Below the pieces are notes generated by a model. It saw only the letters and a list, made by a program, of their open reading frames with translations. It did no database searches and was not told the DNA's origin. A stretch of 30,545 nucleotides of DNA, from positions 1 through 30,545 of the forward strand of contig SXIP01000291.1 in assembly GCA_005772825.1 (NCBI GenBank), read 5' to 3'. The position numbers and the translations under genes were made by a program. Below, piece after piece: positions 1 to 23,516 of this stretch. Every line of letters starts with the position of its first letter. Position 1 is the stretch's first letter. The stretch is from Methylococcaceae bacterium. Lineage in GTDB: Bacteria; Pseudomonadota; Gammaproteobacteria; Methylococcales; Methylomonadaceae.

Positions 1-1277
1 GTGATTGATTGGCGTTGAGGTCACTAATCACCAGCAGATCAATACCGTTGTAATTGGCGTTAAAACTGATGTTACGGATTTGCGCGCCGGTTAAGGCATT
101 TTTAAGTTGTACCCTCAGTTGCGTAGCGTTTTGTTGCAATACCGCAAGGCCAGCTGTGCCTTTACCACTGATGTCTCGCACCACCCCCAGGTCCAGCGGT
201 TTGAAGGCAGGATCAAACGGCATCGCGCTGAGTTTGACGCCGCTCAGGCTGTCTCGCACTTCCACTTGTACCGCCTGATCACTGCTGCGCACACCCAGCA
301 CGGCGATTTCCGATGCGCCGTTGTTGTTGAGGTCAGGTAAGACATTTGCTTTATTGGGCACAAATTGGCCGTCGAATGGGATTCGCCTGACCAATGCGCC
401 GGTTTGGGCGTTTTTCACCGTGGCGGTGGATTTTTTGAGGGTGGGGTTATAAGTGACGACGGCGATTTCGGGGCTGTTGTCTTTGTTGATGTCACCGAGT
501 GAGATAATCGGGGTTGCGTTAACGATTCCGTTGTATAGTTGCTGGATTTCAGATTCAGAGAGAGCCCGGTTGTAGATACGAATATCATCAACAGACCCGG
601 CAAAATATTCACCCAAGAAGGACGCACTTCCAAAGAACAACTGTGTATTTTGCGAAACGATGTTCAGACTTGTATTTACGGATGCGTCCAATACCGCATT
701 AACATAGAAATTCCATGATTTGTTGTTTTTGACAATGACCACCTGATACCAAGTGTTCTGAGCAAAATCTGTTTTTGATCCCATAAGGTGGGCAGCTATA
801 TTCCAGCTATCCCCACCAGTATCCAACCAATAACTCAATCCGCCATCCCCACTGTGATTATAATTAATTGCAATCCCGTTATGCGGCTTGGTATTTAAAA
901 TTGCATTGAATTGTTTCGATAAATCATCGAGCTTGAACCATGCACTTATCGTGTAAGCAGTGCTGCCTATATCGAAAAAAGCAGTTTGGGTGTTGATATA
1001 ACTATCTACGCCATTAAATCTGTACGCACTGTTCAAATCTGTACGCACTGTTCGCATTCCCGAAGCGATCCGTCGTCAGTGTCGCCTCATGGATAGCACA
1101 GTTATTACCATTGCCACTCACATCGTTGGCGTTACCATTAAATGGGTAATAAGCAGCTAATCCATCATTTAGCTCGGCTGTTGCAAGTATTGGGAGGAGC
1201 AATGCTATCGCAAAAATTATTGTAACAATACTCTTTTCGTTAAATCCCTGTTTTCGGTGTTCCATGTTGTTATTCAT
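1..1277 (-). pseudogene. Paralog 1 of the secreted LamG + FG-GAP-like propeller family. It is cut by the window edge (its 3' end lies off-window) and frameshifted by a 19-bp tandem duplication.
   Basis: N-terminal ORF 1014..1277 encodes a signal peptide and the start of a LamG_3 domain (LAAYYPFNGNANDVSGNGNN...SAYRF). It then hits a stop that a perfect 19-bp tandem duplication at 1016..1053 creates. Manual translation after removing one copy continues in frame through a full LamG domain (…VDDIRIYNRALSESEIQQLY…). It then runs into the conserved repeats (SLGDINKDNSPEIAV…MPFDPAFKPLDLGV…) and on to position 1. DNA at 1-520 is near-identical to 2262-2780. Confidence 0.7.
1016..1053. repeat. Perfect 19-bp tandem duplication (aaatctgtacgcactgttc, two copies) that disrupts paralog 1
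   Basis: Read directly: positions 1016-1034 equal 1035-1053. 19 is not a multiple of 3, so the frame shifts and a TAA stop falls at 1014-1016 on the gene strand. Confidence 0.9.
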
Positions 1278-1395
1278 GTTAAATTTCCTCTAAATTAAAG
1301 GCTCGCTGAAAAATGTCATCATTGTTTATGTCTACGCGGGAAGGGCAACATGCACCGTCCGGCTGAAAAAAGATGTTGCTCGATCTCAGATGCAA
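1278..1395 (-). promoter_or_regulatory. Conserved upstream/5' region of paralog 1, homologous to 3562..3679 upstream of paralog 2
   Basis: aaaggctcgctgaaaaatgtcatcattgtttatgtctacgcgggaagggcaacatgcaccgtccggctgaaaaaagatgttgc aligns with aaaggcttgctaaaaaatgtcatcattgtttatgcctacgcgggaagggcaacatacaccgtccggctgagaaaatatgttgc. Both end in a GGGGA-type Shine-Dalgarno 6-7 nt before the ATG. Confidence 0.5.
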
Positions 1396-1454
1396 CTTAA
1401 AAATACATCGCCTAAATCAACACCCCTGGAAGCTAGAGCTTCCCAGCCCGCATT

Positions 1455-1663
1455 CCCAAGCCAGAGCTCTCGTCGTTATACACAAGTCTGTTCAAGACTT
1501 GACTGTAGGCCGGAATAAGCATGCCCGGCGGTAGCAAGGGCGTGTGTTTCCGGCATCACGTAGCTTCGAAGTGCCGGAAACGCCTGTCCTGCGCTCATGC
1601 GCGGACAGCCTTATTCCGGCCTACCTCGATTTGTGTATAACGATGAGAGCCAGAGCTTGGGAA
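1455..1663. mobile_element. MITE-like nested palindromic repeat, copy A. Outer inverted repeats are cgttatacacaa / ttgtgtataacgatgag. The inner 119-bp core at 1506..1624 has perfect 15-bp terminal inverted repeats GTAGGCCGGAATAAG and a central hairpin gtttccggca…tgccggaaac.
   Basis: Inverted repeats read directly. The inner core is the reverse complement of the core at 7862..7981, with about 90% identity and matching asymmetric internal positions. There is no ORF. Confidence 0.75.
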
Positions 1664-1698
1664 CGAGCTGAGTAGTCACAAAAGCTCTACCTGCGCGC

Positions 1699-3561
1699 TT
1701 AAAAATACATCCCCTGAATCAACACCCCTGTCTTTCCATCACGCACTTCGGCAAACAGCTTTTGCGGACCGGGTTGTTCCCTAAGGCGCACCAATTCAGC
1801 GACGCCGTTGCCGTTGAGGTCGGGGATGGAGATGAAGCCGACCGTGGTGCCATAGTTGTCGAAGACGACTTTATTGATGAAGGTATCGGTTAGGGTGTCA
1901 TGGACTTCGGCGCGAATTTGTCCATCTGAGGCGCGCAGGCCCAGCATTGCTAGGTGGGTTTGACTGTTGCTGTCGGCGACACTCGCCAATTTGAACGGTT
2001 GTGACAAGGCATAGTCCAGCGTATTCACCGGTAAACCGCTTAAGGTGTCTTTTAATGACACCCGTGCGGTATTGGTCCGCAAAACCCCTAACTCGGGGCC
2101 GCCTTTGTTATTCAGGTCAGGTAGATTAATCAGTTGCTTTAGTTCTTGGCCGCTGCCGTAGCTGATGGTGCGTATTAATGCGCCGGTCTTGCTGTCATGT
2201 ATTTCTACGATGTCAGCCGCACTGGTGGTTTTGTTATCGGCCAGCACAGCGATTTCCCGTGATTGATTGGCGTTGAGGTCGCTAATCACCAGCAGATCAA
2301 TACCGTTGTAATTGGCGTTAAAACTGATGTTACGGATTTGCGCGCCGGTTAAGGCGTTTTTAAGTTGTACCCGCAGTTGCGTAGCGTTTTGTTGCAATAC
2401 CGCAAGGCCGGCGGTGCCTTTACCACTGATGTCTCGCACCACTCCCAGGTCCAGCGGTTTGAAGGCAGGATCAAACGGCATCGCACTGAGTTTGACGCCG
2501 CTCAAGCTGTCTCGCACTTCCACTTGTACCGCCTGATCACTGCTGCGCACACCCAGCACGGCGATTTCAGAAGCACCATTGCCGTTCAGGTCAGGCAGGA
2601 CATTGGCTTTAGTCGGCACAAATTGGCCGTTGAAGGTGATTTGCTTGACCAGGCCGCCGGTTCTGGCGTTTTTGACGGTGGCGGTGGATTTTTTGAGGGT
2701 GGGGTTATAGGTGATGACGGCGATTTCGGGGCTGTTGTCTTTGTTGATGTCGCCGAGTGAGAGAAGCGGGGTGGCATTGATGGTAAATTGATCCTTTGCC
2801 TTATACATTTCCATTACCTCCGTATCTGAAAGAGTTCTATTATAAATACGAACACTGTCTATGAGACCAGCATAGAATCTAGCATCTCTATTTAGAAGAA
2901 ATGCACCTATATTTAGATCGCTAAAATCTACTGCTGTATTATTCACTACTGAAAAAGTAGTGTTCGTATCTAAAATACCATTTACATAAAGATATGATGT
3001 TCCAGTATCGCCGTTCATAACCCATACAACATGCTGCAATTGGTTCAGTTGAATTGCTGTATTTCCATAGAATTCACTTCCGACCGGACCTGTACTTTGA
3101 GAAGGCTGGATTCCGTATTCAGCAGAATGAATTCTGCATTCACCAGACACCGTTCTTAGAGAAAATACAACTTTCCCCCAAGTCCATCTCGTTGACCCAA
3201 TAATTGAACCATCGGTATTAATCTCACATGATGAAGGTTTTATCCATGCGCTGAAAGTAAATGTATTATTTACAGGCGACGGAAAATAATTCAGAAGGCC
3301 GATATAATCACCAGTTCCGTTGAAATTATATGCGCTATTAGGCTTCCCGTTTCCATCGGTAGTCAATGTAGCTCCATTTACTGTCCCGTAATTTCCATTC
3401 CCACTTTCATCATTAGCATTTCCATTGAAAGGGTAATAAGCAACCAATCCGTTATTTAGGTCCGCTTTTGCAAGTATAGGCAAGAGTAAGGCCATCGAAA
3501 AAAGTATCGCAATACTCTTTTCGTTGAATCCATGTTTTTGGTGTTTCATGTTGTTATTCAT
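1699..3561 (-). CDS. Secreted LamG (ConA-like lectin/glucanase) domain + seven-repeat FG-GAP/beta-propeller protein, paralog 2 (620 aa)
   Basis: Complete ORF with a GGGGA Shine-Dalgarno 6 nt upstream of the ATG. It has a K-rich N-terminus plus a hydrophobic signal peptide (SIAILFSMALLLPILAKA) and a LamG_3 signature (LVAYYPFNGNANDESGNGNYGTVNGATLTTD…VRIYNRTLSDTEVMEMY). Seven repeats of about 50 aa follow, each with a D-x-N-x-(D/N)-G loop (LGDINKDNSPEIAV, LPDLNGNGASEIAV, ISDLNANQSREIAV, IPDLNGNGVAELV …). Confidence 0.85.
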   Translation of the reverse strand: MNNNMKHQKHGFNEKSIAILFSMALLLPILAKADLNNGLVAYYPFNGNANDESGNGNYGTVNGATLTTDGNGKPNSAYNFNGTGDYIGLLNYFPSPVNNTFTFSAWIKPSSCEINTDGSIIGSTRWTWGKVVFSLRTVSGECRIHSAEYGIQPSQSTGPVGSEFYGNTAIQLNQLQHVVWVMNGDTGTSYLYVNGILDTNTTFSVVNNTAVDFSDLNIGAFLLNRDARFYAGLIDSVRIYNRTLSDTEVMEMYKAKDQFTINATPLLSLGDINKDNSPEIAVITYNPTLKKSTATVKNARTGGLVKQITFNGQFVPTKANVLPDLNGNGASEIAVLGVRSSDQAVQVEVRDSLSGVKLSAMPFDPAFKPLDLGVVRDISGKGTAGLAVLQQNATQLRVQLKNALTGAQIRNISFNANYNGIDLLVISDLNANQSREIAVLADNKTTSAADIVEIHDSKTGALIRTISYGSGQELKQLINLPDLNNKGGPELGVLRTNTARVSLKDTLSGLPVNTLDYALSQPFKLASVADSNSQTHLAMLGLRASDGQIRAEVHDTLTDTFINKVVFDNYGTTVGFISIPDLNGNGVAELVRLREQPGPQKLFAEVRDGKTGVLIQGMYF

Positions 3562-3679
3562 GTTAAATCCCCTCTAAATTAAAAGGCTTGCTAAAAAATG
3601 TCATCATTGTTTATGCCTACGCGGGAAGGGCAACATACACCGTCCGGCTGAGAAAATATGTTGCCCGACTCCAGGCAAC

Positions 3680-5506
3680 TTAAAAATACATCCCCTGAAT
3701 CAACACCCCTGTCCGACCATCACGCACTTCGGCAAACAGCTTTTGCGGGCCTGGTTGTTCTCTGAGACGCACCAGTTCGGCGACGCCGTTGCCGTTGATG
3801 TCGGGGATGGAGATAAAGCCGACGGTGGTGCCGTAGTTGTCGAAGACGACTTTATTGATCAAGGTATCGCTGAGGGCGTCATGGATTTCCGCGCGAATTT
3901 GTCCGTCGGAAGCGCGCAGGCCCAGCATGGCCAGGTGGATTTGACTGTTGCTGTCGGCGACACTTGCCAATTTGAACGGTTGCGACAGGGCATAGTCCAG
4001 CGTATTCACCGGTAAACCGCTTAAGGCGTCTTTTAATGACACCCTGGCCGTATTCGCCCGCAACACCGCTAACTCGACGCCGCCGTTGTTATTCAGGTCC
4101 GGTAGATTAATCAGTTGCTTTAGTTCTTGGCCGGTGCCGTAGCTGATGGTGCGGATTAATGCGCCGGTCTTGCTGTCGTGTATTTCCACGATGTCGGCAG
4201 CACTGGTGGTTTTATTATCGGCCAGTACGGCGATTTCCCGCGATTGATTGGCGTTGAGGTCGCTAATCACCAGCAGATCAATACCTTTGTAATTGGCGTT
4301 AAAACTGATGTTGCGGATTTGCGCGCCGGTTAAGGCATTTTTAAGTTGTACCCGCAGTTGCGTAGCGTTTTGTTGCAAGACGGCCAATCCCGCTGTGCCC
4401 TTGCCGTTTATGTCCCGCACCACGCCTAAGTCAAGGGGTTTGAAGGCAGGATCAAACGGCATCACACTGAGTTGGACGCCGCTGAGACTATCCCGGACTT
4501 CCACTTGTACCGCCTGATCACTGCTTCGCACACCAAGCACGGCGATTTCTGAAGCACCATTGCCGTTCAGGTCAGGTAAGACATTGGCTTTAGTCGGTAC
4601 AAATTGGCCATTGAAGGGGATTTGCTTGACCAATGCGCCGGTTTGGGCGTTTTTTACGGTGGCGGTGGATTTTTTGAGGGTGGGGTTATAGGTGATGACG
4701 GCGATTTCGGGACTGTTATCGTTGTTGATGTCGCCGAGGGAAACAAGCTGAGGTGTGTTCGGGATTTCCTGGTAGAGTTGCTGAATTTCTGAGGCCGATA
4801 AGGCACGGTTGTATATACGAACATTATCTAAACTGCCACGCATATAAAATTCAAAACCTGTATGAATACTTTTTCCAATAAAACCTTTTGACATGCCCGT
4901 ATTATGTGATTGAGGGAACAAATGTGTGCCTATATTTAAACCGTTCAGATAAATATTCAACCTACTGTTTTTATATACATATGTTGTCATGCTCCATTTA
5001 TTGGCTATTAAAGGCGTATTACTGATAAACCAATCTGCACCAGAGCCCGTATCAAATCCCATTAGCCCTAGCCACGGTGCCGCGTATCCACCCCATGATG
5101 ACGTACCGTAAAGAATTGCAAAAGTTTTCCATTCTTCAGGCATTCCATAAGAAATAATCGCCCCAATAGACGTTCCAGTATCGAGTTTTGCCCAAACAGA
5201 TATTGTTCTTTCATGACTTCCAGACGGTAATGTATTGAGGTTCAATTCGATAAAGCTAGCACCATCAAAATAATACGCGCTATTTTGATTACCGAATCGA
5301 TCCTCAACTAAACTTGCTCCGTATACCGTTCCATCATTCCCATTTAAACTTTCATCTTTTGCATTGCCATTGAACGGATAATAAGCGACTAATCCGTTAC
5401 TTAGATCGGCTATTGCAAGTGTTGGGAAGAGCAAGGCTATCGCAAAAAATATCGCAATTCTGCTTTTCTTAAATACCGGTTTTTGGTGTTTTATATTGTT
5501 ATTCAT
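3680..5506 (-). CDS. Secreted LamG + FG-GAP/beta-propeller protein, paralog 3 (608 aa), with a distinct LamG head
   Basis: Signal peptide RIAIFFAIALLFPTLAIA. LamG motif LVAYYPFNGNAKDESLNGNDGTVYGASLVEDRFGNQNSAYYFDG…VRIYNRALSASEIQQLY. The C-terminal 370 aa are about 95% identical to paralogs 2 and 4. Confidence 0.85.
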   Translation of the reverse strand: MNNNIKHQKPVFKKSRIAIFFAIALLFPTLAIADLSNGLVAYYPFNGNAKDESLNGNDGTVYGASLVEDRFGNQNSAYYFDGASFIELNLNTLPSGSHERTISVWAKLDTGTSIGAIISYGMPEEWKTFAILYGTSSWGGYAAPWLGLMGFDTGSGADWFISNTPLIANKWSMTTYVYKNSRLNIYLNGLNIGTHLFPQSHNTGMSKGFIGKSIHTGFEFYMRGSLDNVRIYNRALSASEIQQLYQEIPNTPQLVSLGDINNDNSPEIAVITYNPTLKKSTATVKNAQTGALVKQIPFNGQFVPTKANVLPDLNGNGASEIAVLGVRSSDQAVQVEVRDSLSGVQLSVMPFDPAFKPLDLGVVRDINGKGTAGLAVLQQNATQLRVQLKNALTGAQIRNISFNANYKGIDLLVISDLNANQSREIAVLADNKTTSAADIVEIHDSKTGALIRTISYGTGQELKQLINLPDLNNNGGVELAVLRANTARVSLKDALSGLPVNTLDYALSQPFKLASVADSNSQIHLAMLGLRASDGQIRAEIHDALSDTLINKVVFDNYGTTVGFISIPDINGNGVAELVRLREQPGPQKLFAEVRDGRTGVLIQGMYF

Positions 5507-5584
5507 GGTTAATAATTTCCCCTTTGTTAAAAAACGCTCTTAAATCCACCATCTTGTAAATTGGATAAAAACAGCTCTCCCTCA

Positions 5585-7543
5585 CTAAAAATACATCCCC
5601 TGAATCAACACCCCTGTCCGTCCATCACGCACTTCCGCAAACAGTTTTTGCGGGCCGGGTTGTTCTCTTAAGCGCACCAGTTCAGCTACGCCGTTGCCGT
5701 TGATGTCGGGGATGGAGATGAAGCCGACGGTGGTGCCGTAGTTGTCATAGACGACTTTATTAATCAAGGTATCGCTCAGGGCGTCATGGACTTCCGCGCG
5801 AATTTGTCCGTCGGAAGCGCGTACGCCCAGCATGGCCAGGTGGGTTTGACTGTTGCTGTCGGAGACACTCGCCAGTTTGAACGGTTGCGACAGGGCATAG
5901 TCCAGGGTATTCACCGGTAAACCGCTTAAGGCGTCTTTTAATGACACCCGCGCGGTATTCGCCCGCAACACCGCTAATTCGGCGCCGCCGTTTTTATTCA
6001 GGTCCGGTAGATTAATCAGTTGCTTTAGTTCTTGGCCGGTGCCGTAGCTGATGGTGCGTATTAATGCGCCGGTCTTGCTGTCGCGGATTTCCACGGTGTC
6101 GGCGGCGGTGACGGTTTTATTGTCGGCCAGCACGGCGAGTTCCCGCGATTGATTGGCGTTGAGGTCGCTAATCACCAGCAGGTCAATACCGTTGTAATTG
6201 GTGTTAAAACTGATGTTGCGGATTTGCGCGCCGCTCAAGGCATTTTTAAGTTGCACCCGCAGTTGCGTAGCGTTTTGTTGCAGGACTGCGAGGCCCGCTG
6301 TGCCCTTGCCGTTGATGTCCCGCACCACCCCCAGGTCCAGGGGTTTGAAGGCAGGATCAAACGGCACCGCGCTGAGTTTGACACCGCTCAGACTGTCACG
6401 CACTTCCACCTGTACCGCCTGATCACTGCTGCGCCCACCGAGCACGGCGATTTCGGACGCGCCGTTGCCGTTCAGGTCGGGCAGGACATTGGCTTTAGTC
6501 GGCACAAATTGGCCGTTGAAGGGGATTTGTTTGACCAAGGCGCCGGTTTGGGTGTTTTTTACGGTGGCGGTGGATTTTTTGAGGGTGGGGTTATAGGTGA
6601 CGACGGCGATTTCGAGGGCTCCGTCTTTGTTGATGTCACCAAGTGAGAGAAGTGAAGGAATGCTTAGTTGAATTACTGGATTTTCATTGAAACGATCAGA
6701 GAAATCAGTTTTGGCGAAATCGTAAAACACAATATTATCGAGAATCGCATCAGCGTGAATACCATCCCAATTGTGTCGCCCAAGGTAATTTAAGCGGGAA
6801 GGAGGAAGATCGTTTCTTACCGGGCAATTTGGATTTCCTACCAACGCAAGTGATCCGTCGAAATATAAACGAAATAGATCGGTTGTGTTACCGATTCCGT
6901 TATTATCCCAAACCATTGCCCAGTGGTGCCATTGCCCAGTCTCGAAATGAATTCCGTGGCTGCTGTAAGTGCCTGTCAAATTAATTTGCCATCCATCTAT
7001 ACAGCTTTCTATCGGAAAAAATCCAGCTACGATAGTACCAGCACCATCACCCCAGTAGCCAAGCACAAGTCGTTGAGAGCTTAGACCAAGGCTTGTATCA
7101 AATAAAATATGTGTACCCACTCCCGACGACGGCCAAGAGGTTTTGACCCATAACGCGATCGTACCGCGTGAATTCAATATGAGGCTGTTAATCAGCGATT
7201 CGTCTAACAAAAAATATCCAGGAAAAGAACTATCCATCCTGACACCGTTACCGAATCGCCCTGACTCATAATTGACATCACCTGTCTGCACTAAAGGCGG
7301 TCCGACTTCGCTGTTTGTTGCTTGTTTATTGTCTCCAAGCCTATTCCACAAAACAACATCATCTGCTTGCGCGAATTGCACAAACACATTGCTGAAACCA
7401 AAGAGCAAAAATGAGAACGATAAAATGCCATACATCAAAGCAGTATTAAATTTCTGTCCGCTCTTTATGTATATAACCATAATGAAGCTTTTCGAGGCAG
7501 ATAGGGTTTTGATACCGGATTTTACAAAATCAGGTGTGTTCAT
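5585..7543 (-). CDS. Secreted jelly-roll (LamG-like, divergent) + FG-GAP/beta-propeller protein, paralog 4 (652 aa from the 7543 start; alternative ATG starts at 7480 or 7435)
   Basis: The N-terminal 280 aa are unrelated in sequence to paralogs 1-3 but have a LamG-like character (ALWVKTSWPSS…WHHWAMVWDNNG…LFRLYFDGSL). A hydrophobic segment MYGILSFSFLLFGFSNVFVQFAQA is a likely signal peptide. The C-terminal propeller is conserved. A weak AGGAA Shine-Dalgarno lies 9 nt upstream of 7543. Confidence 0.8.
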   Translation of the reverse strand: MNTPDFVKSGIKTLSASKSFIMVIYIKSGQKFNTALMYGILSFSFLLFGFSNVFVQFAQADDVVLWNRLGDNKQATNSEVGPPLVQTGDVNYESGRFGNGVRMDSSFPGYFLLDESLINSLILNSRGTIALWVKTSWPSSGVGTHILFDTSLGLSSQRLVLGYWGDGAGTIVAGFFPIESCIDGWQINLTGTYSSHGIHFETGQWHHWAMVWDNNGIGNTTDLFRLYFDGSLALVGNPNCPVRNDLPPSRLNYLGRHNWDGIHADAILDNIVFYDFAKTDFSDRFNENPVIQLSIPSLLSLGDINKDGALEIAVVTYNPTLKKSTATVKNTQTGALVKQIPFNGQFVPTKANVLPDLNGNGASEIAVLGGRSSDQAVQVEVRDSLSGVKLSAVPFDPAFKPLDLGVVRDINGKGTAGLAVLQQNATQLRVQLKNALSGAQIRNISFNTNYNGIDLLVISDLNANQSRELAVLADNKTVTAADTVEIRDSKTGALIRTISYGTGQELKQLINLPDLNKNGGAELAVLRANTARVSLKDALSGLPVNTLDYALSQPFKLASVSDSNSQTHLAMLGVRASDGQIRAEVHDALSDTLINKVVYDNYGTTVGFISIPDINGNGVAELVRLREQPGPQKLFAEVRDGRTGVLIQGMYF

Positions 7544-7822: not shown

Positions 7823-8154
7823 TTTCCCAAGTTCCGCTCTCATCGTTATACACAACTCGATGTAGGCCGGAATAAGTCTGTCCGCGCTTTAGCGCAGGAC
7901 AGGCGTTTCCGGCACTTCGAAGCCGTGTGATGCCGGAAACACACGCCCTTGCTGCCGCCGGGCGTGCTTATTCCGGCCTACTTTCAAGTCTGTGGGAGCA
8001 CGTCATTCCGGCATGGATTGCCGGAGCCGTTAGAACGCGTAAGCGAATCCAGGGCATAGGGATGTGTTCGAAGTTACCGTCCATGGCCTGGATACCCGCT
8101 TCCCGGCTGGTATGACGACACTTGATGTATAACAGTGAGAGCTAGAACGAGCTG
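7823..8154. mobile_element. MITE-like nested palindromic repeat, copy B, inverted relative to copy A. The inner core is 7862..7981 with the same 15-bp terminal inverted repeats. An extra palindrome-rich segment of about 124 bp lies at 7997..8120.
   Basis: The outer inverted repeats ctcatcgttatacacaa … ttgatgtataacagtgagagctagaacgagctg match copy A. The core equals the reverse complement of 1506..1624. Confidence 0.75.
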
Positions 8155-8157
8155 AAA

Positions 8158-9321
8158 TTAGATCTTTGTCCCTCTATCAGTCAAACGCACCATATCGTTC
8201 ATGACGCCGTCCAGCCCGCCATAGACGTTGAGCGTGTTGATACGGGCGGTGATCTTTTCCAGTATTTCCAGTTCTTTCAGGCGTAGCAAAACCGGGTTGC
8301 CTTCCATGACTTTGGCTGTGTTATGCAGCGAACGGGTCGCTTGGGTTTCTTCCTGGCGCTTGATCAGGTTGGCTTCCGCCAGCTTTTGCGCTTCGACAAC
8401 CTGGGTCAGAATGGCTTTCATTTCGCCGGGCAAGATGATGTCGCGCGCGCCCACGGCCTTGACCTCAATCCCGTAGCTCGCGGCTTTTTCCACAACGATG
8501 CCGAGAATTTGGCTGTTCAGCGAATTCTTGTCGGCCAGCAGTTCGTCGAGCGTTTGCGTGCTGACAATGGTGCGCAAGGCCAGTTGCAATTCCCGGTATA
8601 GGAAGTCTTTGGCATCGGCCAATTCCGCCTTGACCACTTCAGGTTGTTTTATCTGCCAGGTGGCCGACAGATTGATACGCAAACTGACCCGGTCTTTGGT
8701 CAGGATTTCCTGACCGTTCACTTCCATATTTTGTAAACGACCGTCATACAACGATACCGTAATAGTCCGGTTGAAACGCCACCAGACATGGGTGCCGGAG
8801 TTTAAAGTCGCCAGCGTCTCGCCATCCACGGACAGAAAACCGATATGATTTTCCGGGACCGTAGCGATGACGATAGAGGCTATGACTGCTTTTCGTAACA
8901 GGTCATCCTTGCTGTTGGTCAATAGCGCGGCCAGTTTTTTTGCTACGCTAAAGTTCTCGCTAATGTCTGTTTTTTCAACACGGATTTCCTGACCGGTTTT
9001 CCAGTAAGCGCCGCTTTGCGCAGGTGCTTTAATATCCTTCAGCCCGTTTTTCTGGTAAACCAGACCGACTTCCTGCTCGCCGGTTTCCCATAGCGTCAGG
9101 CTGTCGGCAAAAGCCGCCGGATGCAATTCGGCCAGATCCAACACATCCTTGCTTACGCCATTCTGTAAGGTATTGGTGATCGTAACAGTTTGAAGCTGAT
9201 ATTGATTGAAACAATCCCAAAACTTATGAACGCCCGGCTGCAATACCTTGATGAACTGTTGCTCTTTAAATAACAGGCCGCGCTGGGTTTCCGGGATAAT
9301 GATTTTTTTCGTTAACAGCAT
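8158..9321 (-). CDS. SPFH/band-7 (stomatin/prohibitin/HflC-like) domain protein, 388 aa from an internal ATG with a strong Shine-Dalgarno
   Basis: C-terminal RDIILPGEMKAILTQVVEAQKLAEANLIKRQEETQATRSL…NPVLLRLKELEILEKI is typical of SPFH. The ORF-track start at 9507 would run into the tRNA-like genes. The ATG at 9321 is preceded by taAGGAGagcatt, giving spacing 6. Confidence 0.8.
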   Translation of the reverse strand: MLLTKKIIIPETQRGLLFKEQQFIKVLQPGVHKFWDCFNQYQLQTVTITNTLQNGVSKDVLDLAELHPAAFADSLTLWETGEQEVGLVYQKNGLKDIKAPAQSGAYWKTGQEIRVEKTDISENFSVAKKLAALLTNSKDDLLRKAVIASIVIATVPENHIGFLSVDGETLATLNSGTHVWWRFNRTITVSLYDGRLQNMEVNGQEILTKDRVSLRINLSATWQIKQPEVVKAELADAKDFLYRELQLALRTIVSTQTLDELLADKNSLNSQILGIVVEKAASYGIEVKAVGARDIILPGEMKAILTQVVEAQKLAEANLIKRQEETQATRSLHNTAKVMEGNPVLLRLKELEILEKITARINTLNVYGGLDGVMNDMVRLTDRGTKI

Positions 9322-9570: not shown

Positions 9571-9644
9571 GTTCACTAGCCGGGGTCGAACCGGCGACAG
9601 ACTGATGATGAGTCAGTTGCTCTACCATACTGAGCTATAGTGTA
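9571..9644 (-). tRNA. tRNA-like gene, 74 nt, anticodon CAT (Met/Ile2-like). It has an A2:A71 acceptor mismatch and C at position 37.
   Basis: Manual fold: acceptor TACACTA/TAGTGAA, D-arm GCTC-AGTATGGTA-GAGC, anticodon arm ACTGA-CTCATCA-TCAGT, variable loop CTGTC, T-arm GCCGG-TTCGACC-CCGGC. It was not checked with tRNAscan. Confidence 0.5.
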
Positions 9645-9646
9645 TG

Positions 9647-9717
9647 TGCCGCCAGTTGGGATCGAACCAACGACAGGCCCGAGGTCGGGCTGCTCTACCG
9701 GACTGAGCTATGGCGGC
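9647..9717 (-). ncRNA. tRNA-like RNA, 71 nt. It has canonical acceptor, D and T arms, but the anticodon arm collapses to a 5-bp stem with a 4-nt loop, so it has no usable anticodon.
   Basis: Manual fold: GCCGCCA-TA-GCTC-AGTCCGGTA-GAGC-A-GCCCG-ACCT-CGGGC-CTGTC-GTTGG-TTCGATC-CCAAC-TGGCGGC-A. No register gives a 7-nt loop. It lies 2 nt from the preceding tRNA-like gene, is on the same strand as rtcB, and starts 106 nt downstream of it. Confidence 0.45.
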
Positions 9718-9823: not shown

Positions 9824-11029
9824 TTAACCCTTGACGCAAAGTACCTGCTTCAAGGTATGGACAATTTCCACCAGGTCGGCCTGCGCGGCCATGACCTTGT
9901 CGATGGGTTTGTAGGCTGACGGGGTTTCGTCGATCACGCTCGCGTCTTTACGGCATTCCACGCCTGCGGTCGCTTCGATATGCTCGGCCAGCGACACGCG
10001 CTTTTTAGCTTCGGTGCGGGACATGATGCGACCGGCGCCGTGGCTACAGCTACAGAAACTCTCTTCGTTACCCAAACCCCGCACGATGAACGATTGCGCC
10101 CCCATGCTGCCGGGGATGATGCCCATTTCACCCAGTCGTGCGCTCACCGCGCCTTTACGGGTTACCCAGACGTTTTTATCGTAGTGATGTTCGCGGCTGA
10201 TGTAGTTATGGTGACAATTCACCGCTTCGGTATGCGCTTCGAACGGCACCGGCAATACTTCGCGAATCGCCTGCAAGGTGTTTGTCATCATCACTTCCCG
10301 GTTGACCTGGGCGAAGTCTTGCGCCCAGGCAACGGCTGCAATGTAATTTTGAAAATGCTCGCTGCCTTCCGGGATATAGGCTAAATCTTTATCGGGCAAA
10401 TGGATGAACCAACGCTCCATGTCTTTTTTCGCCTGTTCGATAAAATGCGTACCGATCCGGTTACCGACTCCGCGTGATCCGCTGTGCAACATCACCCATA
10501 CGGCATTGTTTTCATCCAGGCAAATCTCGATGAAGTGGTTGCCTGTTCCCAAGGTACCCAGGTGGTTCAGATTATTGGTATTCTTCAGGAACGGATGTTT
10601 TTCGCACAAGCGCTGGAAACCTTCATCCAGCGCCAGCCACGCCTGTGTTATCTCTTCCGGCGGTTTACCCCAGCTTCCGGTATCGCGTCCGCCGCGGAAA
10701 TTCACTGAACGGCCATGAGGAACGCGTTGTTCTATCGCATTGCGCATGGCCGATAAAGAATCCGGTAATTGCTCGGCGGCCAGGCTGGTTTTTACCGCCA
10801 TCATTCCGCAACCCAAATCCACACCGACAGCGGCGGGGATGATAGCGCCGATGGTCGCGCCTTTACCGACATGCACATCCGGCATTACGGCAATCCATTT
10901 GTGTATAAAAGGCATGCGCGCGATATTTTGCAATTGCTGTTTTGAGTTATCGTCAAAACTGACGCCGCGCGTCCAGGATTTGATAGGGTGTTTACCTGCT
11001 TCGGATATAACTTCATAGGCGGTGGTCAT
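9824..11029 (-). CDS. rtcB: RNA 3'-phosphate/2',3'-cyclic phosphate RNA ligase RtcB (401 aa)
   Basis: Full-length match to the RtcB family by recognition (…MPDVHVGKGATIGAIIP…GNHFIEICLDE…HSGSRGVGN…CSCSHGAGR…). Confidence 0.95.
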   Translation of the reverse strand: MTTAYEVISEAGKHPIKSWTRGVSFDDNSKQQLQNIARMPFIHKWIAVMPDVHVGKGATIGAIIPAAVGVDLGCGMMAVKTSLAAEQLPDSLSAMRNAIEQRVPHGRSVNFRGGRDTGSWGKPPEEITQAWLALDEGFQRLCEKHPFLKNTNNLNHLGTLGTGNHFIEICLDENNAVWVMLHSGSRGVGNRIGTHFIEQAKKDMERWFIHLPDKDLAYIPEGSEHFQNYIAAVAWAQDFAQVNREVMMTNTLQAIREVLPVPFEAHTEAVNCHHNYISREHHYDKNVWVTRKGAVSARLGEMGIIPGSMGAQSFIVRGLGNEESFCSCSHGAGRIMSRTEAKKRVSLAEHIEATAGVECRKDASVIDETPSAYKPIDKVMAAQADLVEIVHTLKQVLCVKG

Positions 11030-11103
11030 GGCTTGTTCCTGTTGTCTGTTGTTGTTTAGGAATGAAAATTAAATTACTTGAGCATTTTATCCCCTCTCCC
11101 CAA

Positions 11104-11124
11104 CCCTCTCCCGGAGGGAGAGGG
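11104..11124. promoter_or_regulatory. Perfect 9-bp-stem palindrome ccctctccc-gga-gggagaggg in the rtcB leader, preceded by a direct copy of ccctctccc
   Basis: Read directly. It lies between the predicted sigma-54 promoter at about 11175 and the rtcB ATG at 11029. Confidence 0.4.
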
Positions 11125-11167
11125 AGCCGGTTGTCGAAGTTATTTTCATTCCTTACATGATTGATAA

Positions 11168-11183
11168 GGCAATACCAATGCCA
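11168..11183 (-). promoter_or_regulatory. Sigma-54 (-24/-12) promoter reading towards rtcB
   Basis: Minus strand reads cTGGCATtggtaTTGCc, with GG and GC at the canonical 10-bp spacing (consensus TGGCAC-N5-TTGCA). Context is consistent: rtcBA in E. coli is sigma-54 dependent and activated by RtcR. Confidence 0.55.
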
Positions 11184-11321
11184 GTTTCTGTTCTGTGTAC
11201 CTATTACGATGTGCATCCCTTATAAATCGAGGGCTGAGTGCGGTAGCTGCGGGGAAAATTAAGATAATCACGAAAACCCGTCTATACTTTTTCCTATCGA
11301 AAATGATAGTGAGTTATCCAA

Positions 11322-12917
11322 ATGAATACGGTGGTTATCGGCATACTGGGTTCGCGTCTCGATCACGCAGGTTTCGGCAAAAGGCGCTTTGAACGTTGGC
11401 GGCCCAGCGTTTCCTTACTGATGCACGGCAGTTTGCGGGTCGATGAATTTGTCTTGATCCATCATCCCGATGAAGCCGAGCTTGCCGGTATCACGATGCG
11501 CGATATGCGGGCTGTTTCCGGGCAGACCCTGATAAGGCCTTATCAGGTTGATTATGCCGATCCCTGGGATTTTGAGCAGGTTTACAGCCAGTTGCATGAT
11601 TTCACGCGCAGTTATACGTTTGATCCGGAACAAAACGACTATTACGTGCATATCACTACCGGTACTCATGTCGCGCAAATCTGTCTGTATTTGTTGACCG
11701 AAGCGAACTATATTCCCGGCAAACTGCTGCAAACCTCGCCGAGCAAAGCCGGTATCCAGGGCACTTATCGGATGATCGACCTGGACCTGTCGCGTTATGA
11801 CCAGATCGCGTCGCGGTTCAAGCGGGAAGCGCAGGACGGCATTGCCTATCTGAAAAGCGGCATCGAAACCCGCAACACGGCATTCAACGAGCTGATTTCA
11901 CAAGTGGAGCAGGTATCCATCAAATCATCGGCGCCGATGTTATTGACCGGCCCGACCGGTGCCGGTAAGTCGCGTCTCGCCAAACGCATTTACGAGCTGA
12001 AAAAACAGCGCGGGCAATTGACCGGCAAACTGGTCGAAGTGAATTGCGCTACCTTGCGCGGCGATAATGCCATGTCCGCCTTATTCGGCCATGTCAAAGG
12101 CGCTTTTACCGGCGCGTTCAGCACCCGCACGGGCTTATTGCGCGAGGCGCACAAGGGTTTGTTATTTCTCGATGAAATCGGTGAATTGGGTTTGGATGAA
12201 CAGGCGATGCTGCTGCGTGCGATAGAGGATAAGGTATTCATGCCGTTGGGCGCCGACAACGAGATTGGCAGTGACTTTCAGTTGATAGTCGGGACCAATC
12301 GTGACCTGTTTGAACAGGTGCGGCTGGGACGTTTTCGAGAAGACTTGCTCGCGCGCATCAATTTATGGACCTACGAATTGCCTTCCTTGAAGCAACGCAT
12401 GGAAGATTTTGAGCCCAATCTGGAACATGAATTACAGCAATTCACCTTCCAGGCGAATCACAAAGTCAGTTTCAACAAAGCGGCGCGTGAGCGCTATCTT
12501 GCTTTCGCCTACTCGCCGCAAGCGCTATGGCGGGCAAACTTCCGCGATTTGAATTCCAGCGTCACCCGTATGGCGACCCTGGCGACCGGCGGACGGATTA
12601 CCGAAGAAATCGTCGCGGGCGAAATGGTGCGTTTGCAGTACGCCTGGTCAGGATTTATAGATCAGACACCTGTTGTAATCGATACATTGGCCGGGCTGTT
12701 GCCGCCGCAAACCTTGGCTGAGCTTGATTTGTTCGACCGGATGCAGCTTGCCGAGGTCGTGAGGCTGTGCAGGGAAAGCCGCAGTCTGGCTGAAGCAGGG
12801 CGCCGATTATTTAATGTCAGCCGCACCCAAAAAGCCAGCAGCAACGATTCCCATCGCCTCAAGCAATATTTACAACGCTTTGGCCTGGTTTTTCAGGATG
12901 TATGTAAGGGTGGTTGA
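11322..12917 (+). CDS. rtcR: Sigma-54-dependent transcriptional activator RtcR (N-terminal CARF domain, AAA+ sigma-54 interaction domain, C-terminal HTH), 531 aa
   Basis: N-terminus MNTVVIGILGSRLDHAGFGKRR…HITTGTHVAQICLYLL is CARF-like. Walker A is LLTGPTGAGKSRLA. GAFTGA is present, with LLFLDEIGEL as Walker B. The gene is divergent from rtcB. Confidence 0.9.
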   Translation: MNTVVIGILGSRLDHAGFGKRRFERWRPSVSLLMHGSLRVDEFVLIHHPDEAELAGITMRDMRAVSGQTLIRPYQVDYADPWDFEQVYSQLHDFTRSYTFDPEQNDYYVHITTGTHVAQICLYLLTEANYIPGKLLQTSPSKAGIQGTYRMIDLDLSRYDQIASRFKREAQDGIAYLKSGIETRNTAFNELISQVEQVSIKSSAPMLLTGPTGAGKSRLAKRIYELKKQRGQLTGKLVEVNCATLRGDNAMSALFGHVKGAFTGAFSTRTGLLREAHKGLLFLDEIGELGLDEQAMLLRAIEDKVFMPLGADNEIGSDFQLIVGTNRDLFEQVRLGRFREDLLARINLWTYELPSLKQRMEDFEPNLEHELQQFTFQANHKVSFNKAARERYLAFAYSPQALWRANFRDLNSSVTRMATLATGGRITEEIVAGEMVRLQYAWSGFIDQTPVVIDTLAGLLPPQTLAELDLFDRMQLAEVVRLCRESRSLAEAGRRLFNVSRTQKASSNDSHRLKQYLQRFGLVFQDVCKGG

Positions 12918-16632: not shown

Positions 16633-16743
16633 GCCCCAAGCTTATAATTAATCGTTATACGCAACTCTCCAGCAATGAACAGTAATCGGTTTCCCCCTGA
16701 TTTTTAAAAGGGGGGCAAGGTCGCGATTGTGTATAAAGATGAG
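16633..16743. repeat. Third, core-less copy of the MITE outer inverted-repeat pair (cccaagc…cgttatacgcaa … ttgtgtataaagatgag). It encloses a 62-bp segment with a GC-clamped hairpin ccccct-gatttttaaaa-gggggg.
   Basis: Direct comparison with 1455-1485/1631-1647 and 7823-7855/8121-8137. Confidence 0.6.
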
Positions 16744-22253: not shown

Positions 22254-23516
22254 TTACCTATTAAATTTTGATAAATATCTTGAAAAAACCCATCCTTGCT
22301 TGAATTCATTTGTATCAGAGTCTTGATATTCTATTAAACACCAACTTCTTTTTTTATCTATAACCTTAACTATTTTCCCAATATATAATTCATCAATGAT
22401 TTCTGCCTTAGTGCTTTCATAATTTCGCACAAATAAAATTTTTGTAGCAACAAAATGATGATCTAGTAAAAATTGAGAATTGTAATTTTCATTCGCCCTC
22501 GAAATAATTTCATTTTTTACTTCTCTTGTACTTAGGTTAGGAAATTGATTCCATTGCTCTTCCCAATATGAGGTGGTTACGTTTGCAAAAATTGCTATGA
22601 AGTAAGGGATAAATAAATAGATTAGTACAGCTTTTATAATTGGATTGCTTAAGTTTTTGAGTTGCTCTATAAAACCATTTATAGCATCAATATAAGATTC
22701 GCAATTAATAGAAAAATCATTGATGTATTCAATGATTTCTTCTTGGCTTACTGACTCATTGCCGACAGAAAAAGTACCATCCTCATTGATGTGAACATTA
22801 GCAACTAACTCTGTATGATTTTGAGCGAGACCCTGGAATTCAAGTGTGCTTTCGAATATTTTTCTTAGTCCCAACATATTATCTAAGGGATAAGCTTCAT
22901 AACTTTTCATTTGCTCTTGAAGTCGGGAAATTGGGCTAACTGGTTGGGACAACTCGTGTAGCTTCTTCGCTTGACCTAAAATGCCGCCCATAAAATTGGC
23001 TTCATAATTTTTCATTTGCTCTTGAAGTTGGGAAATTGGGCTAACTGGTTGGGACAACTCGTGTAGCTTCTTCGCTTGACCTAAGATGCCGCCCATAAAA
23101 TTGGCTTCATAACTTTTCATTTGCTCTTGAAGTCGGGAAATTGGGCTAACTGGTTGGGACAACTCGTGTAGCTTCTTCGCTTGACCTAAAATGCCGCCCA
23201 TAAAATTGGCTTCATAATTTTTCATTTGATCTTGAAGTCGGGAAATCGAGCTAACTGGTTGGGTTATCTCGCATAGCTTTTTCAATTGCTCTTGGGTCTT
23301 TAGCAATGGATTTGTATCAAAAAGATTCTTAATTTGCCCTTGCGATTTCATAATTTCAAGCATTTGGTCAAAAGAATCCCTTTTGTCTTTCTGCAATAAC
23401 TCTATTTCTAATTGAGTCAGCATCCTTTTTTGAATTGATGATATAGCGAGCTTCTGACTCGGTAAGGCTGTCGAATCCGTAGCCAAAGAAGTCAATCCAC
23501 CAAGGTTCGAGTTCAT
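22254..23516 (-). CDS. Hypothetical membrane protein with four 35-aa tandem repeats and a C-terminal SH3-like domain. The real start is probably the internal ATG at about 23363, since the track start overlaps the upstream gene by 149 nt.
   Basis: The repeat LHELSQPVSPISRLQEQMKSYEANFMGGILGQAKK occurs three times, plus one degenerate copy. A TM helix IIKAVLIYLFIPYFIAIF follows. The tail is GKIVKVIDKKRSWCLIEYQDSDTNEFKQGWVFSRYL. The DNA is AT-rich. Confidence 0.6.
   Translation of the reverse strand: MNSNLGGLTSLATDSTALPSQKLAISSIQKRMLTQLEIELLQKDKRDSFDQMLEIMKSQGQIKNLFDTNPLLKTQEQLKKLCEITQPVSSISRLQDQMKNYEANFMGGILGQAKKLHELSQPVSPISRLQEQMKSYEANFMGGILGQAKKLHELSQPVSPISQLQEQMKNYEANFMGGILGQAKKLHELSQPVSPISRLQEQMKSYEAYPLDNMLGLRKIFESTLEFQGLAQNHTELVANVHINEDGTFSVGNESVSQEEIIEYINDFSINCESYIDAINGFIEQLKNLSNPIIKAVLIYLFIPYFIAIFANVTTSYWEEQWNQFPNLSTREVKNEIISRANENYNSQFLLDHHFVATKILFVRNYESTKAEIIDELYIGKIVKVIDKKRSWCLIEYQDSDTNEFKQGWVFSRYLSKFNR
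22893..23312. repeat. Four tandem copies of a 105-bp repeat. The first three are near-identical.
   Basis: Period 105 measured from the ggcttcat anchors at 22894, 22999, 23104 and 23209. The repeat is coding, so it is not CRISPR. Confidence 0.85.

Follow-up and report, generated by a model that had tools for sequence, protein, structure and literature searches.

The closest described counterparts of the repeats considered here are the REP/BIME elements of E. coli and Salmonella and the REPINs of Pseudomonas fluorescens, imperfect palindromes with a GT(A/G)G head that belong to REP-RAYT systems. This head is the defining mark of REPs associated with RAYT transposases (PMC2817692), and REPINs, whose published definition is followed here, are inverted doublets of such units with a short spacer (PMC3337134). 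Palindromes of this kind can also serve as targets: all copies of ISRm22, an IS4-family element of Sinorhizobium meliloti, are inserted in REP sequences (Tobes and Pareja 2006, PMC1525189). Tn5/IS50 has two slightly different 19-bp ends per element, a transposase with DNA-binding and dimerisation domains, symmetric targets and a 9-bp target duplication. The MIC231 elements of Bacillus are MITE-like derivatives of IS231, also of the IS4 family; they are short, carry variable passenger DNA between IS4-family ends and are mobilised in trans. Finally, the Correia elements of Neisseria and the ERIC/IRU elements of enterobacteria are intergenic, palindromic, non-coding repeats of about 100-200 bp, and Correia elements make a TA duplication.

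The window, that is, the whole stretch of 30,545 nucleotides analysed here, contains conspicuous repeats that probably represent a nest of three layers, in which a P2 palindrome hosts a MITE with Tn5-type ends, this MITE carries a REP doublet, and an IS4/Tn5-type transposase would move the MITE in trans. Each component is of a known kind and nothing points to a new biological mechanism; the repeat is an ordinary though undescribed one of Methylobacter-type methane oxidisers, not a new kind of system, and our literature search found no paper describing these elements in Methylobacter.

Tn5-like ends enclose each of the segments concerned, and the window therefore holds three MITEs, referred to below as copy A, copy B and the third site, whose boundaries were defined through their terminal repeats and flanking duplications (Table 1). 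The repeats exceed chance by far. A repeat scan of the window paired 1495-1650 with 7836-7991 as reverse-complement arms of 156 nt at 92% identity, in agreement with the preliminary description of copy B as the reverse complement of copy A, and found two inverted pairs around copy A, one of 36 nt (1453-1488 and 1628-1663) and an inner one of 23 nt. The motif GTAGGCCGGAATAAG occurs exactly at 1505, 1610 (minus strand), 7862 and 7967 (minus strand), marking the ends of two cores, both of 120 bp and with the perfect 15-nt inverted ends that had been claimed for them; with up to three mismatches it has 7 matches in the window against 0.67 expected. The outer arm, TTGTGTATAACGATGAG, lies at 1469 (minus), 1631, 7839 (minus), 16648 (minus) and 16727 with 0-3 mismatches, against 0.07 expected, and a sixth, indel-bearing copy at 8121-8139 completes the outer inverted pair reported for all three sites. 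Divergence is greatest in the arms of the third site (3 and 1 mismatches of 17), and the P2 arm beyond the outside-end-like terminus of copy B is partly deleted (8140-8154). Fold prediction renders copy A as one nested hairpin, at -76 kcal/mol as DNA (z = -13.3) and -120 kcal/mol as RNA (z = -12.7). No ORF of at least 80 aa lies inside the three copies, consistent with the earlier view that none encodes a protein.

Table 1. Features of the three nested repeats in the window
Feature	Position	Strand	Remarks
Small palindrome GGAAGCT-AG-AGCTTCC	1428-1443		Read from the sequence; looks like one hairpin of the four-hairpin P2-type array hosting copy A (compare the arrays L100:661-771 and L108:2777-2889)
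Left P2 arm TTCCCA (1453-1458) and left 10-bp target duplication AGCCAGAGCT (1459-1468)	1453-1468		Direct repeat, 10/10
Copy A, 179-bp MITE	1469-1647	+	Outside-end-like terminus CTCGTCGTTATACACAAGT 1469-1487; inside-end-like terminus 1629-1647
REP doublet (REPIN-like) in copy A	1505-1624		Left unit 1505-1554 (+), right unit 1573-1624 (-), 18-nt spacer
Right target duplication AGCCAGAGCT (1648-1657) and right P2 arm TGGGAA (1658-1663)	1648-1663		Sequence reading and flank comparison
P2 arm TTCCCA and 9-nt flank AGTTCCGCT of copy B	7824-7838		Orthologous flank in L001
Copy B, 301-bp inverted MITE	7839-8139	-	Inside-end-like terminus 7839-7857; decayed outside-end-like terminus 8121-8139
REP doublet in copy B	7862-7981		Repeat scan and GTAGGCCGGAATAAG matches
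'Extra' segment of copy B	7997-8120		Homologous to the interior of the MITE class of about 206 bp; inverted CGTCATTCCGGCATGGA…TCCATGCCGGAATGACG
Third site, diverged 96-bp MITE	16648-16743		CCCCC/GGGGGG hairpin cargo, without REP; decayed flanks CCCCAAGCTTATAA / GGTTTATGGGGGG

The core is an inverted doublet of GTAG-headed REP units. Each half consists of GTAGGCCGGAATAAG, 26-28 nt that form a covarying inner hairpin, and GTTTCCGGC. In its head and first arm the unit comes close to REPs published from enterobacteria, for instance TGTAGGCCGGATAAG, and the Salmonella and Citrobacter REPs GTAGGCCGGATAAG are almost alike to GTAGGCCGGAATAAG over this portion (PMC2817692). A genome scan with the pattern GGCCGGAATAAG-N15-45-GTTTCCGGC, of which GTAG forms no part, and with one genome per species, returned at least 119 stretches, several per genome and almost all from Methylococcaceae. 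The matches listed include Methylobacter tundripaludum SV96 and OWC-G53F, M. psychrophilus, Crenothrix, Ca. Methylumidiphilus, Methylomonas lenta and many lake genomes, and among them GTA stands directly before 152 of 167 REP units.

Sampling these genome matches gave 224 heads and 83 head-out inverted doublets with a modal length of 120 bp; 10 of the 83, in this sample of the matches listed, adjoin the outer repeat or lie inside a MITE, and the others are free. Given that free doublets are scattered and share the 120-bp mode, the core is an ordinary free-standing REP doublet of REPIN-like type. An alignment of 55 distinct units places 10-25 double compensatory changes on each of the five pairs of the inner stem; the outer stem of the same alignment is imposed by the search pattern and is therefore uninformative. 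Many dispersed extragenic copies and compensatory stem changes are traits shared with REPs and REPINs, and the REP copies of the window are likewise intergenic. They differ from those systems in the greater length of the unit (about 50 nt), in its second, variable inner hairpin, and in that a DDE-type MITE houses about one in eight of the doublets of this class.

In the inward direction the outer arm reads CTC(A/G)TCGTTATACACA and continues with AGT at one terminus of the element and with TCT at the opposite one. Of the 20 bases of the Tn5 outside end CTGACTCTTATACACAAGTC it shares 15, and of the 19 of the Tn5 mosaic end CTGTCTCTTATACACATCT it shares 14, the end matches containing 12-13 contiguous bases (Tn5 end sequences from PMC2566895). 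As in Tn5/IS50, the ends are of 19 bp, contain TTATACACA(AGT/TCT) and come in two slightly different versions per element, although they depart from Tn5 at 5 of their first 7 positions. Scanning metagenomes for CTCRTCGTTATACACAWSTC gave at least 120 stretches; among the matches listed, 225 ends were sampled in 133 loci. The arms recur at unrelated loci of other genomes, mostly flanking a REP doublet.

Some of these ends bound full-length elements of 1,459-1,661 bp with identical-type ends on both sides (L201 31-1503, L209 6838-8302, L128 386-1844, L206 375-2035 and L216). The ends CTCATCGTTATACACA(AGTC/TCTC) are common to the MITEs and to these full-length elements, and those of copy A are identical to the ends of L201 and L209. 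By tblastn with a Tn5 transposase sequence as query, a transposase was found in the full-length elements (up to 3.8e-37, about 27% identical to Tn5). The L201 protein matches the Pfam families Tnp_DNA_bind (7e-22) and Dimer_Tnp_Tn5 (6e-21), the PDB structure 1MUS of Tn5 transposase (2.9e-28) and the NCBIfam IS4 family (368 bits, cut-off 160). It thus has the DNA-binding and dimerisation domains of Tn5/IS50, and the elements differ from Tn5/IS50 in carrying no resistance cargo. Judged by these similarities, the outer repeat is the presumed transposase-binding end of a Tn5-like IS4-family insertion sequence. A start of a further full-length element at L106:7762 was rejected, as the site proved to be another composite MITE.

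The likeness to Tn5 also allows a trivial explanation, that the outer arm is a sequencing artefact left in assemblies by the Nextera/Tn5 mosaic-end adapter. The arm does contain AGATGTGTATAA, the first 12 bases of the reverse-complemented mosaic end, which is the library adapter sequence, but its outer 7 bases are consistently unlike the adapter, and the arms stand in inverted pairs, with target duplications, around real transposase genes. They occur moreover in isolate genomes, for example that of M. tundripaludum SV96. Full-length IS ends and target duplications led us to reject adapter contamination, the probability of which is practically nil.

The transposase was located only through the metagenome scan for the end sequence; no Tn5-type transposase was found in the first 850 kb of the REP-centred genome loci, and the gene is absent from the window, which is an entire 30.5-kb contig of a metagenome-assembled genome. 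It would be supplied in trans by a full-length IS elsewhere in the genome. The likeness between MITEs and full-length IS is confined to about 20 terminal nucleotides, so an origin of the MITEs by internal deletion is not supported. Short length, IS4-family ends, variable passenger DNA and presumed mobilisation in trans are features in common with MIC231, from which the window elements differ in host clade, in their ends and in a passenger made of a REP doublet or hairpins, not genes.

The target duplications support this assignment of the ends. Copy A carries a perfect 10-bp duplication on both sides, inside the palindrome TTCCCA…TGGGAA; target duplications were among the features that the preliminary description had proposed to define. 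Pairing of ends within 2.3 kb yielded 69 elements of 90-1,661 bp, 66 of them with usable flanks. Direct 9-10-bp flanks were perfect in 18 and had one mismatch in 10 (28/66), against rates of 0.8% and 4% when left and right flanks of different elements were paired. Among the full-length elements, L201 is flanked on either side by CGCCGGAGCG, which makes a 10/10 duplication within a P2 palindrome, and L128 has a 9/9 duplication; Tn5/IS50, for comparison, duplicates 9 bp where copy A has 10, and both use symmetric targets. Copy B and the third site are without a clean duplication, their flanks having decayed.

The P2 palindrome reads TTCCCA(A/C)GC-nnnn-GC(T/G)TGGGAA, with the duplicated 9-10-mer at its centre. 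A P2 arm adjoins 158 of 206 element ends (77%) and 2.7% of random positions, and 93 uninterrupted P2 palindromes are present in the 1.7 Mb sampled. Since the duplicated 9-10-mer is the centre of P2, the 'cccaagc' sequence, taken earlier for a further flank of the outer repeat, belongs to a separate host palindrome that serves as landing pad, the transposon end being what was called the 'outer repeat'. The real landing pad is P2, with the element in its loop and a 9-10-bp duplication around it. The suggestion that the outer pair acts as a landing pad accepting different cargo hence needs to be divided: the pad is P2, and the ends do enclose different cargo.

In this respect the elements resemble ISRm22, likewise of the IS4 family, which strongly favours REP-like palindromes in which G/C bounds the duplicated stretch (PMC1525189). 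The differences are that mostly non-autonomous MITEs of 90-460 bp are involved here, that the target palindrome is another one, and that REP hairpins are carried within.

P2 often lies within arrays of four hairpins about 105 bp long. Such arrays, of about 105-110 bp, AAGCT-nn-AGCTT-type and bounded by P2, occur at L100:661-771, L106:1792-1875, L108:2777-2889, L098:2517-2625 and L119:4273-4383; they are a repeat family of their own and the usual host of Tn5-end MITEs.

Perfectly inverted flanks of 9-10 nt were observed in 6 of the 66 elements (L141, the full-length IS L209, L224, L153, L202 and L232), with a null rate of 0.8%, and simple target duplication cannot account for these six. When the joined flanks of every paired element were compared with 247 loci, no spanning match, that is, no empty orthologous site for a Tn5-end MITE, was obtained.

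From these observations a sequence of steps can be proposed. The host layer is the REP-like P2 palindrome, frequently as part of a four-hairpin array, and the middle layer is a MITE in the P2 loop, its termini of 19-20 bp being predicted sites for a Tn5-like (IS4-family, DDE) transposase. This enzyme would synapse both ends, cut the element out and paste it into a symmetric GC-flanked target, where the staggered cut of 9-10 bp would be repaired into a direct repeat. Free REP doublets, of the same kind as that of the inner layer, would spread on single-stranded DNA by means of a RAYT-type tyrosine transposase.

RAYT genes do exist in the clade. The gene at L119:587-1132 matches the E. coli RAYT structure (PDB 4ER8, 1.4e-40) and NCBIfam NF047646, 'REP-associated tyrosine transposase', has no Pfam match at the default E-value, and has homologues so named in Methylobacter and Methylovulum; L059 contains no more than a degenerate RAYT fragment. 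Six loci with RAYT genes were compared (L119, L122-126, L132, L247-248, L249-250 and L251-252), and in none is the gene flanked by the GTAG-headed REP of the window, a further difference from REP/REPIN systems; all six are flanked by other REP classes. The REP class of the window is represented near a RAYT gene by a lone unit at L119:1290-1348, 160 bp from the gene. The differing REP classes beside the RAYT genes indicate that several REP-RAYT systems coexist in the clade.

Of the flanking classes, GTAGGGCG(C/T)GCC… was seen at L119:520-545 and 1141-1268, at L122:2860-3740, in L247 and in L251, and ATAGGATATGCCGACGCC… flanks the L132 RAYT, which belongs to a second clade, at 7510-7540 and 8130-8160.

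These data bear on a different reading, in which the whole 209-bp composite is a single element of BIME/REPIN type, moved only by RAYT on single-stranded DNA, with the outer arms as extra hairpin layers. The entire unit folds as one long nested hairpin, RAYT genes are present in the clade, and one of them has a window-class REP within 160 bp. Nevertheless, the outer arms are the exact termini of IS copies that encode a DDE transposase of Tn5 type, and direct repeats of 9-10 bp flank them. Related single-strand transposases are not known to make flanking direct repeats. Identical arms also enclose cargo without REPs, and the RAYT loci have REP classes other than that of the window, all of which makes a single RAYT-moved element quite improbable. 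The resemblance to modular BIME, ERIC or Correia repeats proposed in the preliminary description is partial. The elements are non-coding, nested and modular and combine a REP doublet with MITE-type ends, but ERIC and Correia elements do not fit: their termini are dissimilar, and those of the window are Tn5-like with a 9-10-bp duplication. Rfam at gathering thresholds matched only two tRNAs in the whole window.

Twelve copies from different loci and genomes, with differing flanks, aligned end to end in one shared order: outside-end-like terminus, short linker that in some copies includes a 33-bp hairpin, REP, spacer, REP, 4-7 nt and inside-end-like terminus. Copy A, which thus aligns with 11 copies elsewhere, shares 88% identity with L182 and 85% with L134, two copies that likewise measure 179 bp. 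By this alignment the composite is a coherent MITE family. The position of the REP doublet is fixed, 4-7 nt inside the inside-end-like terminus, and its inner hairpins track the free REPs of the host genome. In view of the fixed place, the doublet would have been captured once or site-specifically and would then have travelled with the MITE.

The commonest MITE class is about 206 bp long, and its interior is homologous to the 'extra' segment of about 124 bp in copy B, aligned with L169, L152, L223, L153 and L179. The segment is thus as real as previously claimed; the alternative that it is an independent insertion was rejected by the alignment, in which it is the usual interior of the 206-bp class. 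Copy B is an older, longer member of the family that retains this interior. Single hairpins are the cargo of short copies (90-150 bp). The third site, decayed and with a cargo of its own, is one of these short members and compares in length with copies of 90-119 bp elsewhere.

The hairpins of the short copies include a second GTAG REP class, GTAGGGTGG…CCACCCTAC, noted as cargo between Tn5-like ends at L244:248-337, L232:3879-3997 and L240:3259-3406.

Between identical Tn5-like ends, then, at least two GTAG REP classes occur. A more ambitious proposal treats the combination of REP hairpins with Tn5-type ends as a recurrent, chimeric and non-autonomous element that two unrelated transposases might move, with the ends as substrate of a DDE Tn5-like enzyme and the REPs as substrate of a tyrosine RAYT. 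We regard this as a speculative and rather doubtful extension. The fixed place of the doublet and its host-tracking hairpins could reflect repeated site-specific capture; alternatively, selection may favour a hairpin interior because it draws the two ends of a very short element close enough to synapse. That REP hairpins are repeatedly associated with Tn5-type ends is the one feature that merits further attention.

The genomic surroundings address two further explanations. The window begins, at 1-7543 on the minus strand, with an array of four tandem paralogs, the first cut by the contig end, which encode proteins of about 610-650 aa with Laminin_G_3 (concanavalin-like) domains and FG-GAP repeats and are 90-97% identical in parts. 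Copy A lies within this array, between two paralogs, in a nest of 270 bp (1429-1698) that the other paralog junctions lack; the statement that the full copies sit at the edges of the array therefore fails for copy A. Two copies of the last 32 nt or so of the paralog gene flank the nest, at 1397-1428 and 1699-1730. One is an orphan with 2 mismatches and the other is the real 3' end of the ORF 1699-3561; in addition, region 1280-1428 aligns with 3562-3711.

It could be supposed that the copies arose by local duplication, or act as a module for recombination that shapes the paralog array, and are no mobile family. Copies A and B are inverted, 6.2 kb apart, and bracket three paralogs, and the position of the copy A nest between two copies of the paralog's 3' end points the same way. 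This explanation is very improbable in the face of the dispersal of the elements: each of the two layers turns up at numerous unrelated loci across many genomes and metagenomes, contrary to the possibility, raised at the outset, that no further copies exist. Nor did the comparison reveal any inversion, deletion or array rearrangement attributable to the copies, and the idea that they mediate rearrangement of the paralogs finds no backing.

Two related contigs were compared, L001 (RtcB 97% identical, flanking DNA about 96%) and L002 (RtcB 93%); the nearest named relatives of the RtcB protein are from Methylococcaceae, Methylococcales and Thiothrix. An orthologue of copy B lies at the same place in L001 (12930-13403) with both P2 arms intact, so the insertion is older than the split of the two lineages. 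L002, in which gene order and synteny differ, has no elements downstream of the corresponding genes.

The orthologue in L001 contains a further MITE of 163 bp (L001:12990-13152) with ends CACTGCCATTAAGTTAAGG and an 11-bp duplication AGGCCATGGAC, for which 8079-8089 of the window is the empty site; the two form a clean filled/empty pair, and this contrast speaks for recent MITE activity in the nest. The same kind of MITE occurs at L119:4220-4424 inside a P2 palindrome with the duplication ACGCAGAGCGT, and the terminal repeat CACTGCCATTAAGTTAAGG also matches in L052, L014, L109 and L072.

Enterobacterial REP and BIME elements have reported roles in mRNA stabilisation, transcription attenuation or protein binding. 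By analogy, the elements might persist chiefly because they serve the host, either through RNA structure at 3' ends (mRNA stability, attenuation) or as protein-binding sites. Each of the three sites is intergenic and follows closely on a stop codon. For copy B the distance to the stop codon of the Band_7 gene is 4 nt from the flanking repeat remnant and 19 nt from the terminus, and the third site lies between convergent ORFs. The RNA fold is very stable and the inner REP stem covaries. On the other hand, covariation is equally expected if a transposase recognises the hairpin, neither an intrinsic-terminator pattern or T-run at the copies nor an Rfam family match was found, and L002 does without the elements downstream of the corresponding genes. 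On the question, posed in the preliminary description, of intergenic terminator positions, the location 3' of genes holds, and the terminator does not. A function for the host as the main reason for their presence is unlikely; it is compatible with the mobile-element explanation and would be a co-opted role.

The three-layer nest accounts for a conspicuous repeat found in Methylobacter, Crenothrix and other Methylococcaceae related to them, bacteria of major importance for methane oxidation in lakes and wetlands. Nested repeats of this kind are likely to break metagenome assemblies, and some of the sampled copies stand at contig ends. The REP family, the P2 palindrome family and the IS4-type MITE family can now be masked or annotated. 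The elements also offer another clear case of an IS4-family element targeting REP-like palindromes, and a natural set of 90-200-bp elements with Tn5-type ends that may interest studies of the minimal substrate length of Tn5-type transposases.

Other features of the window deserve a brief record. Within the ORF 22254-23516, four or five tandem 105-bp units occupy 22789-23288, where the AT content of the window peaks (37.6% GC). Two adjacent tRNA genes (9571-9717) are situated between the Band_7 gene and RtcB, and at 9824-12917 RtcB and the sigma-54 activator RtcR are divergent, an arrangement conserved in L001 and L002.
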